From: an uncultured bacterium
Lineage (GTDB): Bacteria > Verrucomicrobiota > Verrucomicrobiia > Limisphaerales > UBA8199
Assembly (NCBI GenBank): GCA_963749495.1
Contig: CAVVMW010000018.1
Location: 62,240-126,239 of the forward strand
DNA length: 64,000 nt
Direction: 5' to 3'
The position numbers were made by a program, and so were the translations under genes. Under the pieces are notes generated by a model, which did no database searches, was not told the DNA's origin, and saw nothing but the letters and a program-made list of their open reading frames with translations. Of this stretch, positions 12,807 through 63,381 are shown piece by piece (the first letter of the stretch is position 1; the number at the start of each line of letters is the position of its first letter).

Positions 12807-12918
12807 CGGAGTGCGCCCGTCCCCGGGCGCAGCGACGTCCGGAGCCAGCGCAGCGGTCAAACGCTCCACCGCGCCTGCTCGCCCCGTCGCTGCTGCGCCC
12901 GGGGACGGGCGCACTCCG
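12807..12918. repeat. Family-4 foldback repeat (about 110 bp)
   Basis: Perfect 26-bp arms GGAGTGCGCCCGTCCCCGGGCGCAGC / GCTGCGCCCGGGGACGGGCGCACTCC. Copies at 24151, 56027 (split) and 57790. Confidence 0.9.
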
Positions 12919-12967: not shown

Positions 12968-13139
12968 GCGCGCGACAGAATTCTTCGGATGCACGATGGA
13001 ACCGGCGGTGCGTGCTCTGGACGCCAAAGGCGTCGTTCATACCAGCCCAGGGCAACGCCCTGGGAACAGCCGCCAATAGTCATCTGGATCGCTGAAAGCG
13101 CGATTCATCCTCCCGGAGGCTTATGAGGCAGGCCGTTGG
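12968..13139. repeat. Family-5 foldback repeat, left half (interrupted)
   Basis: Colinear with 63090-63250 up to ...GAGGCAGGCCGTTGG, then homology stops at 13139. Confidence 0.9.
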
Positions 13140-13145
13140 TCAAGC

Positions 13146-13451
13146 TTGCCAACTACGCCTGATTGCGACGATCTGGCACAGGTCTTTCGCATCACGCACC
13201 CCTATCACCCGCTCCGTGGCCGGGGGTATAGACTACTGCGCCGCGGACAGGGCTGGGGAGATCGTCGGGTCTGGTTCCATGATGACGCCGGACAGTTGAT
13301 TTCATTGCCTGAAGCCTGGACCAGCCTGGGACCGGCCGACCCGTTTGTGACCCTCTCGCAGGGGCGCGCTTGCGCACGGGTGGAAGACCTGCTTGGGCTG
13401 GCGCAACTGGTGGCGGACTTAAGCCGCAACGATGTAAAGGGGAATATGTGA
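13146..13451 (+). CDS. Small protein resembling the DUF5372 / Y4bD-Y4pK family (from memory)
   Basis: FRITHPYHPLRGRGYRLL...RVWFHDDAGQLISLPEAWTSLGPADPFV. Only a TTG start is available in the integrated state, 6 nt inside the element end. Confidence 0.55.
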   Translation: MPTTPDCDDLAQVFRITHPYHPLRGRGYRLLRRGQGWGDRRVWFHDDAGQLISLPEAWTSLGPADPFVTLSQGRACARVEDLLGLAQLVADLSRNDVKGNM

Positions 13452-13538: not shown

Positions 13539-13568
13539 TTGACACGGAGCCGGAGACGCCACTATACT
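13539..13568 (+). promoter_or_regulatory. Sigma70-like promoter inside the element (TTGACA-18-TATACT)
   Basis: TTGACA at 13539-13544 and TATACT at 13563-13568, in the only AT-rich stretch of the element, 39 nt upstream of ATG 13607. Confidence 0.5.
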
Positions 13569-13606: not shown

Positions 13607-14110
13607 ATGCCAACGGCTCCATCCCACGACGCCAAGCACCAAGCCCTCCAAACCAGCCATACCCTGCATCCCCACCCCGACAAAGTCCGCCACCCCCTCT
13701 TTGTCCCCGGCGGCTTCTTTGATGCCCGCGACCTCCTTCAAGTCAAATATGAGGCCCTGCGCGCCCTCCGCGCCGAAGGCTGGTCCTTGAGCCGCGCCGC
13801 CCGAGATTTCGGGCTGTCGCGACCCACGGTTTACCAAACCAAACACCTCTTCGCCCTCCAGGGCCTGGAGGGTCTGGTGCCTCGCAAGCCGGGACCCAAA
13901 ACCGCTCATAAATTCACCCCCGAGGTTTTGGGCTTTCTCCAAGCCAGGCGCGCCCAGCAACCGGCGATCTCGGCGGAGCAGTGGGCCCGACAGGTCCAGC
14001 AACGCTTCCGGCTCACCATCCATCCCCGGAGCATTGAACGCGCCTTGGTTGGCCACCAAGAAAAAAGGGGGCGACACAACCCACCGCCCTCAACACCCCA
14101 AAATCCATGA
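13607..14110 (+). CDS. Helix-turn-helix domain protein of the recombinase element
   Basis: WSLSRAARDFGLSRPTVYQTKHLF is an HTH. Stop overlaps the next start (ATGA). Confidence 0.7.
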   Translation: MPTAPSHDAKHQALQTSHTLHPHPDKVRHPLFVPGGFFDARDLLQVKYEALRALRAEGWSLSRAARDFGLSRPTVYQTKHLFALQGLEGLVPRKPGPKTAHKFTPEVLGFLQARRAQQPAISAEQWARQVQQRFRLTIHPRSIERALVGHQEKRGRHNPPPSTPQNP

Positions 14111-14385
14111 CCGACCTCAGCTCGCCACAATGGCCCCAACGCTACGAGGATTTGCGCGCGCACACCCTGGGCTCCCAGGCCACGCTCCACCCCCAAGCCT
14201 GGGCATGGGTGGTGTTCGCCCAGCAGGGTATGCGTGGCTGGATGCGCGCCTGGCAGGATCCGCTGCGCCCTGCCGGCCAGCGGGCCCAGCCAGCCCCCAC
14301 CCTCAATCCCTCGCTCAACACCAGCCCCCAGGCCACGGTGCTTCTAGCCAACAGGACCCTGCGTTGCCTGGGCCTTTCTTTATGA
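14107..14385 (+). CDS. Hypothetical protein of the recombinase element (92 aa)
   Basis: Translationally coupled on both sides (ATGA overlaps at 14107 and 14382). Confidence 0.5.
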   Translation: MTDLSSPQWPQRYEDLRAHTLGSQATLHPQAWAWVVFAQQGMRGWMRAWQDPLRPAGQRAQPAPTLNPSLNTSPQATVLLANRTLRCLGLSL

Positions 14386-16425
14386 ACCCCGAACCCAAAG
14401 TCACCCCCGAGCATCTGAAACGAACCGCTTGCCTTTGCATGCGCCAGTCCACCTTGCGGCAGGTGCTCGAGCATGGCGAAAGCGCCCGCCGTCAATGTGC
14501 GCTGCGGCAACGCGCCGTGGCGCTGGGCTGGGGTGAAGGCCAAATCATCGTGGTGGACGGCGACACCGCCCATAGCGCTGCTTGCGCCGCCGGCCTGGCA
14601 GGACTTCCAGCAACTGGTGGCCGAGGTGGGCTTGGGTCATGCCGGTCTGGTGATGGGCTTGGAGGTTTCGCGTCTGGCCCGTAACTGCAGCGACTGGCAC
14701 CGGCTCCTGGAGTTGTGCGCGCTGAGCAATACCCTCATCCTGGACGAGGAGGGCCTCTATGACGCCAATCAGTTCAATGACCGCCTGCTGCTGGGCTTGA
14801 AAGGCGCCATGAGCGAAGCGGAGTTGCACCTCATCAAAGGCCGGCTCCAAGGGGCGATTCTGAGCAAGGCCCGGCGTGGCGAGTTGAAGTTGCCCTTGCC
14901 CTCAGGGCTGGTTTACAGCCCCGATGAGCGGGTCATCTTGGACCCGGACCAGCAGGTGCAGCAGGCGGTCAAACACTTCTTCCAGAGTTTTGGGCGTGCC
15001 GGCTCGGCCAGGTCCACAGTGCAACTTTTTCGGCGCCAAGCCCTGCTGTTTCCTCACCGCCACCAGGCCGGCTCGGGCGAGCTGCAGTGGGACCCACTCA
15101 CGCAGTCCCGAGCGTTGGCGGTGCTCCGCAATCCGGGGTGTGCGGGCGCCTATGCCTTCGGCCGCACGCGGACGCGTCACACGCCCCAGGGCGGGGTCAG
15201 TTGCCGGCGCTTGCCGGCCGACCAATGGCGAGTGCTCATTAAAGACGCCCACCCGGCTTACATTACCTGGGAGCAGTACGAGCAAAACGTGCAACGGATC
15301 CGCAGCAATGCCCAGGCCTATGGAGCCGACCGCAGGCAAAGTCCCGCCCGAGAAGGTTGCGCGCTGCTCCAAGGACTGGTCCTGTGCGGCCGTTGCGGGG
15401 GGCGCATGACCGTGAATTACCACCAGCGCCAGGGCCGGCCGGTGCCCGCTCACCTCTGCCAACGCCAATGCCTTGAGAGCGGAAAAACCCTCTGCCAGTA
15501 CATACCTGGGCCTGCCATTGACCAGGCGCTCAGCAAGCTGGTTCTGGAAAGCGTGGCGCCGCTTTCCCTGGAGGTCGCTTTGAACGTGCAACAGGAGCTC
15601 CAAAACCGCCTGCAGGACGTGGATCGTCTGCGCCAACAACAAGTCCAGCGGGCCAGTTATGAGGCGGAGCAGGCCCAGCTTCGCTACATGCGCGTGGACC
15701 CCAACAACCGCCTGGTGGCCAACACTTTGGAGGCGGATTGGAACAACAAACTGCGCGCCTTGACCCAGGCCCAACAGGAATACGAGAAGCACCGCCAGAC
15801 TGACCAGCACAAGCTGAGCGAAGAGCAACGGGCACAAGTGCTGAACCTGGCCTGCGACTTCCCCAAATTATGGCAGTCACCCACCACCACCGACAAGGAC
15901 CGCAAACGCATGGCCCGATTGCTCCTGGAGGATGTAACCCTGCTGCGCGGCCAGGATCTGAGCGTGCAAGTCCGTTTCAAGGGCGGCGCCACCCGGTGCT
16001 TGAACCTGCCACTGCCCCTCAGGGGTGGCCAAGCGCGCCTCACCGAACCGGGGCTCTTGCACGAGATCGACCAGTTGCTGGATCAGTTTACCGAAGCACA
16101 ACTGGCGGCGCAGCTTAACCAGAGGGGCTGTTGCTCTTCGCTCAAGCGCCCGTTCTCGGCGAAACTCGTTGGAAGCTTGTGCCGCTGCCACCATTTCAAG
16201 ACCCGCCACCAACGGTTGCAGGACAGAGGGCTCTTGGATTCGCGCGCCATCGCGGCGTTGATCGGCACCAGGCCCAACCTGGTGGGCTATTGGCGCCAGC
16301 AAGGCTTGCTCCAGGGAGTCCTGCTGAATGAAAGGAATGAATATATGTATGAACGGCCGGGTCCGCAAGTAGTCGAACAAATCAAAATGCGCGTTCGTTT
16401 GAAACCCACCGAGGCCCAGTCTTAG
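14382..16425 (+). pseudogene. Large serine recombinase (resolvase/invertase N-domain plus large C-terminal region) with an apparent +1 frameshift near 14590
   Basis: The N-terminal part RTACLCMRQSTLRQVLEHGESARRQCALRQRAVALGWGEGQIIVVDGD is in the frame of ORF 14034-14684. The continuation FQQLVAEVGLGHAGLVMGLEVSRLARNCSDWHRLLELCALSNTLILDEEGLYD runs on in the frame of ORF 14473-16425. Confidence 0.8.
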
Positions 16426-16465
16426 ATCGCCCTAATGAGTGTGCAGTATGAAACCTTCGCTTTGG

Positions 16466-16572
16466 CCTGCAATAGAGAATGTGCGATGGACCCAGGGCGG
16501 CGGCCCGCCTGCGCTGCGCTCCGGCGGGCCTTGCCCTGGGCTGGTATGATTCAGGCCTTCGGCCTGAACGCC
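16466..16572. repeat. Family-5 foldback repeat, right half (interrupted)
   Basis: CCTGCAATAGAGAATGTGCGATGGACCCAGGGCGG...CCTTGCCCTGGGCTGGTATGATTCAGGCCTTCGGCCTGAAC, colinear with 63254-63363. Confidence 0.9.
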
Positions 16573-35398: not shown

Positions 35399-35572
35399 TC
35401 ATACCAGCCCAGGGCAAGGCCCGCCGGAGCGTAGCGCAGGCGGGCCGCCGCCCTGGGTCCACCGCACATTCTCGATTGCAGGCCAACGGCCTGCTTCATA
35501 AGGCTCCTGGAGGTTGAATCGCGCTTTCAGCGCTCCAGATGATTATTGGCCGCCGTTCCCAGGGCTTTGCCC
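35399..35572. repeat. Family-5 foldback repeat (reverse orientation), truncated at the IS4-like element
   Basis: Contains an uninterrupted CAGGCCAACGGCCTG at 35479-35493. Homology ends at ...CCCAGGGCTTTGCCC (35572), where consensus continues TGGGCTGGTATGA. Confidence 0.85.
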
Positions 35573-63089: not shown

Positions 63090-63363
63090 CAGAGTTCTTC
63101 GCGTGCATGATGGGGCCGGAGGTGCGTGCTCTGGACGCCAAAGGCGTCGTTCATACCAGCCCAGGGCAACGCCCTGGGAACAACCGCCAATAATCATCTG
63201 GAGCGCTGAAAGCGCGATTCATCCGCCGGGAGCTTCATGACGCAGGCCGTTGGCCTGCAACAGAATAGATGATGGGCGGTGGACCCAGGGCGACGGCCCG
63301 CCTGCGTTGCGCTCCGGCGGGCCTTGCCCTGGGCTGGTATGACTCAGGCCTTCGGCCTGAACC
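63090..63363. repeat. Family-5 foldback repeat, intact reference copy
   Basis: Arms are TCATACCAGCCCAGGGCAA (63151-63169) and TTGCCCTGGGCTGGTATGA (63324-63342). The apex palindrome CAGGCCGTTGGCCTG is at 63243-63257. Confidence 0.9.
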
Positions 63364-63381
63364 CCAGCGCGCAAACTCCGC

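Follow-up and report, generated by a model that had tools for sequence, protein, structure and literature searches.

The element in the window and its ends

The DNA analysed here (hereafter the window) is a stretch of 64,000 nucleotides (nt) from an uncultured bacterium of the Verrucomicrobiota (assembly GCA_963749495.1, contig CAVVMW010000018.1, positions 62,240 to 126,239). Between 13136 and 16463, on the plus strand, it contains a 3.3-kb mobile element driven by a large serine recombinase (LSR), with an open reading frame (ORF) of the DUF5372 family at the left end, followed by a helix-turn-helix (HTH) gene, a small conserved ORF and the recombinase gene, in which all three LSR Pfam domains (Resolvase catalytic, Recombinase and zinc beta-ribbon) were found. 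The DUF5372 reading frame is divided between the two ends of the integrated element, and is completed when these ends are joined. Coordinates are collected in Table 1, where attL, attR and attP denote the left, right and joined attachment sites, and aa amino acids.

Table 1. Features of the element and of its insertion site (positions in the window)
Feature	Position	Strand	Remarks
attL central dinucleotide TT	13136..13137	+	left crossover, inside TTGG 13136-13139
Left-end share of leader, codons 6-21 of junction ORF (WSSLPTTPDCDDLAQV)	13137..13184	+	doubles as P' arm of attP
TTG, codon 9 of junction ORF	13146..13148	+	sole start-type codon when integrated; variable position in the family
P'-arm motif ACTACGCC (family consensus ACTGCACC)	13152..13159	+	inverted counterpart of the right-end motif, mirrored across the TT core
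DUF5372 gene body (FRITHPYHP... to stop codon)	13185..13451	+	Pfam PF17342 match
Sigma-70-type promoter of the HTH / small ORF / recombinase operon	13539..13568	+	TTGACA, 18 nt, TATACT; 11/12 positions
HTH protein gene	13607..14110	+	HTH_28/29/23/32; like the N-terminal DNA-binding region of IS630/IS481 transposases
Small conserved ORF, 92 aa	14107..14385	+	without family match
Large serine recombinase gene	14382..16425	+	Resolvase, Recombinase, Zn_ribbon_recom domains; frameshifted
Right-end P-arm motif GAGTGTGCAGT, doubling as Shine-Dalgarno (SD) sequence	16437..16447	+	family consensus GAGGTGCAGT; extra T here
ATG and codons 2-5 (MKPSL), with attR central TT (16462-16463)	16448..16463	+	5' end of junction ORF
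Empty paralogue of the insertion site, GCAGGCCG TT GGCCTGCAA	63242..63260	+	in another copy of the host repeat; a second at 35476-35494, minus strand

Both ends of the element carry the tetranucleotide TTGG (13136-39 and 16462-65), and the flanks, when joined at TT, align without a break to an unoccupied copy of a host repeat of ~275 nt (~63104-63380). The 19-mer that spans this join (GCAGGCCGTTGGCCTGCAA) is present exactly at 63242-63260 on the plus strand and at 35476-35494 on the minus strand, and these empty-site paralogues read ...GGCCG TT GGCCTG.... Since two identical empty sites exist in the window, the ends of the element are independently confirmed. Precise insertion at a common central dinucleotide with a recoverable empty site, and an attP with imperfect dyad symmetry about the crossover, are both in keeping with the action of a serine recombinase.

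In the integrated state, the DUF5372 ORF (13146-13451) begins with a TTG located 6 nt inside the left end. No further in-frame ATG, GTG or TTG was found between this codon and the DUF5372 domain, no SD-like sequence was found upstream of it, and the frame stays open into the flank until a TAG at 13077, with no start codon in this interval. The right end reads TGA (16436), GTG (16439) and then, 22 nt after the end of the recombinase gene, ATG AAA CCT TCG CTT TGG from 16448. When the two ends are fused at their common TTGG, an uninterrupted ORF of 109 codons is obtained (encoding the 109-aa protein MKPSLWSSLPTTPDCDDLAQVFRITHPYHP...), in which the TT core straddles the boundary between codons 5 and 6, with one base in each; the 23-mer across the reconstructed junction is CCTTCGCTTTGGTCAAGCTTGCC. 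The initial annotation had described this ORF as having only a TTG start 6 nt inside the left end, as lying upstream of the element's promoter, and as gaining the ATG at 16448 in frame after joining at TTGG, and each of these points agrees with the present results, the promoter being the best site in the element, surrounded by an AT-rich spacer and placed downstream of the ORF.

The joined ends in homologous elements

Homologues of the DUF5372 protein carrying PF17342 number at least 1776 in the protein collection, and 495 of 598 candidate stretches from representative genomes encode a relative. These are found in Verrucomicrobiota, Planctomycetota, Acidobacteriota, Actinomycetota, Chloroflexota, Gemmatimonadota and Alpha-, Beta- and Gammaproteobacteria, often in several copies per genome. 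The four-gene module is the same in every locus with called or annotated genes that was inspected: the HTH gene occupies the same position in all related loci, a counterpart of the small ORF measures 79-101 aa, and intact recombinase genes (in L003, L099 and L105) encode 681-701 aa. The comparison of ends was based on 31 distinct elements, namely those with both ends locatable, in which the left crossover was set from the P'-arm motif and the reading frame was not used. Thirteen loci with enough downstream sequence have no right-end motif at the expected distance (L016, L021, L036, L050, L051, L054, L055, L064, L066, L085, L086, L027 and L017); their recombinase genes are broken, truncated or interrupted, and they were counted neither for nor against.

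The central dinucleotide is TT at both ends of all 31 elements. At the right end, GAGGTGCAGT is followed by ATG (25 elements) or GTG (4 elements), and in the two exceptions (CTG then ATG in L046, CAG then GTG in L072) the next codon is the start. Fusion of the ends places this start in frame with the DUF5372 domain in 30 of the 31 elements, the exception being L001, which has a 1-nt insertion; the frame match is therefore not the coincidence of about 1 in 3 that the initial annotation had allowed for, and the observation is correct and not due to chance. Elements that were examined separately (L029, L105, those of Sinorhizobium meliloti 1021 and GR4, L117 and L120) also fuse in frame. The leader before the conserved Phe measures 21 aa; it is one residue shorter in three elements (20 aa) and one longer in S. 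meliloti (22 aa), so that the length variants seen amount to whole codons. From the start codon to the Phe codon, no stop was found among 627 codons in frame, versus 22 and 51 stops among ~597 codons in the other two frames, and differences from the leader of L002 are mostly synonymous. The position of the boundary agrees in copy-versus-copy comparisons within genomes of Accumulibacter, Longimicrobiales, Planctomycetota and Paraburkholderia, and removal of the element at TT from L003 restores an intact ORF for a 450-aa DDE transposase. The comparison with homologues that had been proposed at the outset thus found, in every right end examined, an in-frame start preceded by an SD-like GAGG, and the opposite outcome, a left end with its own conserved start and ribosome-binding site (RBS), was looked for in the homologues and not found, codon 9 being variable.

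The right-end motif bears on another reading of these data, according to which DUF5372 would be a normal gene of the left end whose translation in the integrated state begins at TTG 13146, or at another start inside the element or in the flank, the right-end ATG being kept by needs of the recombinase and the frame being inherited without function. Counted from the ATG, GGTGCAGT at the right end occupies positions -8 to -1 and ACTGCACC at the left end positions 30 to 37, and the two form an inverted pair that is exactly symmetric about the TT core; among the 27 elements aligned here (consensus ..AtGAGGTGCAgT ATG), these positions are complementary in 14-27. Such symmetry is what distal half-site motifs would be expected to show in the attP of a serine integrase, and this membership of an inverted repeat, with the fact that the recombinase ORF reads through these right-end bases in about a third of the elements and that gene callers use the TTG found at codon 9 in 5 of 57 left ends, is what favours translation from the left end. 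The start codon itself does not follow the same rule. Although it belongs to the best-conserved positions, the dyad does not include it (positions 0, 1 and 2 being complementary in only 1, 0 and 7 of the 27 elements), and it alternates only between ATG and GTG (bar L046 and L072, where the next codon is the start). Where the recombinase reads through (..EVQYEA followed by its stop), the Tyr codon is always TAT, or TGT (Cys), and never the synonymous TAC; since a TAC in the recombinase frame would destroy the junction start (giving ACG), its absence argues for conservation of the start codon. Motif and start are also kept where the recombinase stops upstream of them (in the window, L004 and L011). 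With these points, the leader free of stops in one frame only and varying by whole codons, and no start on offer in most left ends and flanks (46 of 57 and 46 of 56, respectively, as detailed below), translation of an ordinary left-end gene is considered very improbable.

In the 27 elements whose recombinase ORF is unbroken in this region, the recombinase stop lies between -69 and +11 nt from the junction start, often overlapping it, with recurrent stop classes at -8, +4 (GTATGA) and +11 (ATGAAGCCTGA). This packing is as would be expected of consecutive cistrons with translational coupling. In L015, L023, L032, L048, L062, L072, L084 and L099, the recombinase C-terminus (..EVQ(Y/C)EA and stop) shares bases with the P-arm motif, the SD and the junction start, so that three overlapping codes are found in ~20 nt.

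Starts available while the element is integrated were surveyed in 57 distinct left-end leaders, 46 of which have no in-frame ATG, GTG or TTG (ATG is found in none). Codon 9, the TTG of the window, is TCG in 17 left ends, CTG in 8, CCG in 8, CAG in 6, TTG in 5 and other codons in 13. Beyond the left end, the frame mostly continues for 2-115 codons of flank before it closes, and a flank start in frame before a stop was found at 10 of 56 distinct attL junctions (2 of these starts being ATG, and 3 having an SD-like sequence), the other 46 having none. The annotated N-termini of 123 homologues scatter between 0 and 174 residues ahead of the domain, which indicates that gene callers find no consistent start; in S. 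meliloti, RefSeq starts the DUF5372 coding sequence 54 nt inside the conserved frame.

Several candidate starts closer to the domain were considered and rejected. Homologues beginning with M-x-W (P0060, P0075, P0091, P0048 and P0114) had been suspected to be junction forms with a nearer start, and the DNA of L103 and L105 puts this ATG or GTG in the flank. A group of 93-94 aa (MSNAPD...) seemed to have its own internal ATG, and in the DNA of L117-L122 the 'M' is the TTG Leu codon 9; the right ends of L117-L122 carry GGAGGTGCAGT GTG in frame. The apparent starts of P0009 and P0007 are in fact GTG Val codon 21, and the leader upstream of it is open and conserved.

The same survey bears on an expression in two modes, in which DUF5372 would be made at a low and context-dependent level when integrated (from a weak TTG or GTG, a flank start or read-through) and at a high level from the junction, and would serve the integrated and the excised element alike, for instance as an excision factor of which trace amounts keep the rate of excision low. 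Some start codon is indeed present in 11 of 57 leaders and 10 of 56 flanks, the flank is commonly open, and integrated-state expression would be required for excision if DUF5372 were a classical recombination directionality factor (RDF). Most copies are nevertheless without any start, there is no conserved internal start, SD-like sequence stands beside only three of the flank starts, and the flank strand runs antisense to the gene that is usually targeted, so that neither a host promoter nor a translational fusion is expected. Expression in two modes is for these reasons held to be unlikely.

Natural junctions were sought in one scan of metagenome contigs, using a degenerate pattern that matches only if a right end abuts a left end. 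Three of the 16 matches were true (L099, L091 and L097), and 13 were due to chance, mostly from one AT-rich repeat; a junction scan of viral contigs gave 7 matches, all by chance. Contig L099 (2689 nt) carries a complete 701-aa recombinase gene, the attP junction and an intact junction ORF of 103 aa (MKPDPWLKLSTT...ITHPFHP...), whose start is overlapped by the recombinase stop (ATGAAGCCTGA); the gene order predicted for the circle by the initial annotation, with DUF5372 after attP, is thus the one seen on a natural contig. In L091 (1304-1345) and L097 (440-481), the attP junction is followed by ~28 DUF5372 codons and then by unrelated DNA, and these contigs may be rearranged or truncated tandems. 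Junction contigs could come from circles or from head-to-tail tandems, and either way the assembled gene exists in nature. The presence of multiple copies per genome and contig L099 are indirect signs that the recombinase would carry out excision and re-integration.

A gene probably completed in the excised form, and the copy in the window

We regard it as quite probable, on the comparative data, that the DUF5372 gene is completed by the junction and that only the excised element produces its protein. This reading draws on observed features, namely the precisely located ends, a right-end start and SD kept across the family, a frame that is likewise conserved, the lack of other starts and the natural junction contig. 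Integration splits the gene, leaving the RBS, the start and codons 1-5 at the right end after the recombinase gene and codons 6-109 at the left end. The integrated body, which sits upstream of the element's only promoter and so has none of its own, also lacks an SD and, in most members of the family, a start codon, and the right-end start opens just a short ORF running into the flank. Joining of attL and attR gives a circle (or any head-to-tail junction) in which the restored gene closes the operon promoter-HTH-orf92-recombinase as its final cistron, and its translation would often be coupled to that of the recombinase gene. Starting at the internal promoter, transcription would pass through the recombinase gene and across attP, the protein would be made only from the excised form, and its production would end on re-integration. 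The protein, modelled as an SH3-like barrel with a helix, may act on the recombinase or on attP and so control the next step of the excised element.

Several points weigh against this reading. In the window copy, the recombinase is frameshifted and the SD altered (GAGTGTGCAGT for GAGGTGCAGT). The same right-end bases encode the recombinase C-terminus (..EVQYEA and stop) in some lineages, and the SD-like GAGG is by itself no evidence for translation, because GGTGCAGT is also a recombinase-binding motif. Eleven of the 57 left ends, the window included, have an in-frame TTG or GTG, so that weak expression in the integrated state is possible. The elements compared share descent, and their counts do not represent fully independent events. 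The intact junction contig (L099) is a single one, from one metagenome scan, and could stem from a tandem array rather than from a circle. Lastly, the support for it comes from sequence.

The recombinase of the window has a +1 frameshift at ~14590-14605 (near codon 70), its N-terminal ~70 aa being in the frame of 14382 and the rest in ORF 14473-16425. Searching the window by tblastn with the intact 681-aa recombinase of L003 gave residues 1-99 in frame +2 and residues 73-681 in frame +3, the latter at 76% identity; at the frameshift site, the window reads GGCCTGGCAGGACTTCCAG and L003 reads GGTCGAGAGGGCTTCCAG. In addition, a 1-nt T insertion is seen in the GAGGTGCAGT motif (16437-16447) against both L003 and L004, which weakens both the SD and the recombinase-binding motif of this copy. 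The window copy is probably inactive, and the frameshift corresponds either to a pseudogene or to an assembly error. Whether the copy is a relic, i.e. a decaying, non-autonomous element from which nothing is assembled or expressed here, whatever its intact relatives do, is evenly balanced in our estimation. The frameshift, the altered motif, a non-canonical target (a host repeat, not a transposase gene) and the two identical empty sites that stay unoccupied in the same window suggest decay, whereas the reading frames of DUF5372, HTH protein and small ORF are all undamaged, the remainder of the recombinase matches its intact homologue with no further disruption, a single-base indel could be an assembly error, and a second copy elsewhere in the genome could provide the recombinase in trans.

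The insertion site of the window copy is the palindrome CAGGCCG-TT-GGCCTG, in the middle of the ~275-nt host repeat, which has 38-nt inverted arms and at least 3 copies in the window, 2 of them empty (13023-13060 with 16526-16563; 63104-63380; 35402-35494). Between the large upstream ORF and the element, a GC-rich inverted repeat of 36 nt (12807-12918, loop of 40 nt, complementarity 89%) could be either a terminator or a hairpin like repetitive extragenic palindromic (REP) sequences.

The usual target of the family is the DNA encoding the catalytic-Glu motif of the DDE transposases of other elements, as found at no fewer than 22 of 30 reconstructed sites (L001-L004, L009, L011, L030, L038, L058, L062, L081 and others). 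The motifs concerned are ..KGKVER.., ..NG.IER.. and ..NAYAER.. in IS21, IS3, IS481 and Mu/Tn7-like genes, and the element always inserts in antisense orientation relative to the transposase, its TT core facing the AA of a Lys or Asn codon. The sites of L037 and L056 encode instead the GKGRKER motif of tyrosine recombinases. Through insertion into such motifs, the element inactivates the recombination genes of other mobile elements. ISEc21, of the IS110 family, is reported to target the DDE-motif codons of IS3 transposases (PMC11187229), and this choice of conserved catalytic-motif codons in IS3-family transposase genes parallels the target preference of the present element.

Two other observations concern individual loci. 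In L103 (4154-7333), two group II intron reverse-transcriptase genes (RVT_1 and GIIM) replace or interrupt the recombinase region. The element is present in S. meliloti strains GR4 (L107, pRmeGR4b) and 1021 (L108, pSymA 424964-425269), and that of GR4 adjoins an istB gene of IS21 type and has another recombinase gene close by, in inverted orientation.

The DUF5372 protein, related systems and significance

The window protein matches PF17342 at 66.6 bits (cut-off 25; E=2e-18) over profile positions 1-77 of 78, beginning at the Phe codon at 13185. In the AlphaFold model (predicted local distance difference test, pLDDT, 76), an SH3-like barrel of five strands precedes a long helix at the C-terminus. 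No informative match was found in NCBIfam, PHROGs or PDB sequences, and Foldseek searches against PDB and BFVD returned only weak, generic SH3/KOW-like barrels (all E >= 0.003); these NCBIfam, PHROG, PDB-sequence and Foldseek searches found no likeness of sequence or fold to a characterised RDF or to the integration factors of SNJ2 discussed below. A full-text search of the paper library found no mention of DUF5372, and its matches to y4bD were irrelevant; y4bA-D of pNGR234 may be a counterpart of the element.

Expression that depends on the joining of ends is known from other systems. For Tn4451 and Tn4453 of Clostridium, which use the LSR TnpX, Lyras and Rood reportedly found in 2000 that excision gives a circle whose joined ends form a strong tnpX promoter. 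These elements are likewise driven by an LSR, and in both cases an expression signal is complete only with the ends abutted and marks the excised versus the integrated form. They differ in that a -35/-10 promoter is assembled there and drives the recombinase, whereas here the promoter is internal and complete, and it is a coding sequence that is assembled (SD, start and 5 codons with 104 codons), for a product that would be a separate accessory protein. The circles of the insertion sequences IS911, IS2 and IS30 carry a junction promoter, Pjunc. Circle junction promoters also occur in IS1111/IS110 elements such as ISEc11 and ISEc21 (PMC11187229). As proposed here, abutted ends in a circular intermediate switch on an expression that is missing from the integrated copy, but the enzymes of those elements are DDE or DEDD transposases and the assembled promoter drives the transposase or a guide RNA. 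No junction promoter of this kind was found in the window element, in which the strong promoter (13539-13568) is wholly internal and not split into -35 and -10 hexamers; an expression unit that is complete only with the ends abutted is present, with SD and start at the right end and the body at the left end.

Genes interrupted by integration are known from archaea, the att site of the SSV-type (fuselloviruses SSV1 and SSV2) and pTN3-type integrases lying inside a gene that is intact only in the circle (PMC5861418). There too the crossover lies within a coding sequence and integration interrupts the gene. Their split gene is a tyrosine integrase cut in its middle, in contrast to the small accessory gene considered here, which is split after codon 5 so that translation signals are parted from the body. 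State-dependent expression in integrative elements is further illustrated by Pcirc of ICEclc and by the sib retroregulation of lambda. Promoter switching, with a state-dependent int promoter, is described for ICEKp1 (PMC13023037). The three systems resemble the present one in that a recombination event rewires which regulatory sequence joins a recombination gene, and differ from it in using promoters or RNA-stability elements that act on int; they are not known to part a start codon from its frame. Abutment-dependent switching and genes split at att being already known, what is new is their combination in an LSR-driven element with an internal promoter, where a small accessory gene is parted from its translation start.

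Large serine integrases are controlled by RDFs such as gp3 of phiC31, gp47 of Bxb1 and SprB of SPbeta. A classical RDF is needed before excision, that is in the integrated state, and a role in the excised state is therefore more likely for DUF5372. Accessory factors needed for integration and not for excision have been described for SNJ2 (PMC5861418). Like the RDFs and the SNJ2 factors, the DUF5372 product is a small accessory protein whose gene accompanies that of the recombinase, and it could favour one direction of the reaction; it differs from a classical RDF, which is needed in exactly the state where the DUF5372 protein could not be made. The initial annotation had thought of a directionality or integration-control factor, and the arrangement of the gene suggests that its product would control recombination in the excised state. 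The likeliest role, which we put forward tentatively, is to favour re-integration or to block reversal (the protein could promote or target integration). It is possible, if still doubtful, that DUF5372 is a new kind of LSR control factor with a synthesis tied to topology, for which excision would build the gene and re-integration would destroy it, in the manner of a self-resetting switch.

These results provide a first functional handle on the uncharacterised DUF5372 family, and they imply that its current gene calls are systematically wrong at the N-terminus. They also point to a widespread family of four-gene serine-recombinase elements, uncharacterised in the material that could be searched, with members in tractable organisms (S. 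meliloti 1021 pSymA and GR4, Paraburkholderia nodosa, Accumulibacter). LSRs are tools of genome engineering, for which a natural integration-biasing factor, or a design tying gene expression to excision, would be of practical value. It is poorly understood how transposons with serine recombinases keep from losing an excised, non-replicating circle and how they set direction without a phage-type RDF, and a protein existing only in the excised state would be a concrete and testable answer. If the proposal is true, the element would sense its own state without a regulator, and the protein would switch the recombinase from excision to integration mode or choose the target; this switch would be common to thousands of elements across bacterial phyla, mostly inserted in the catalytic-motif codons of transposases.

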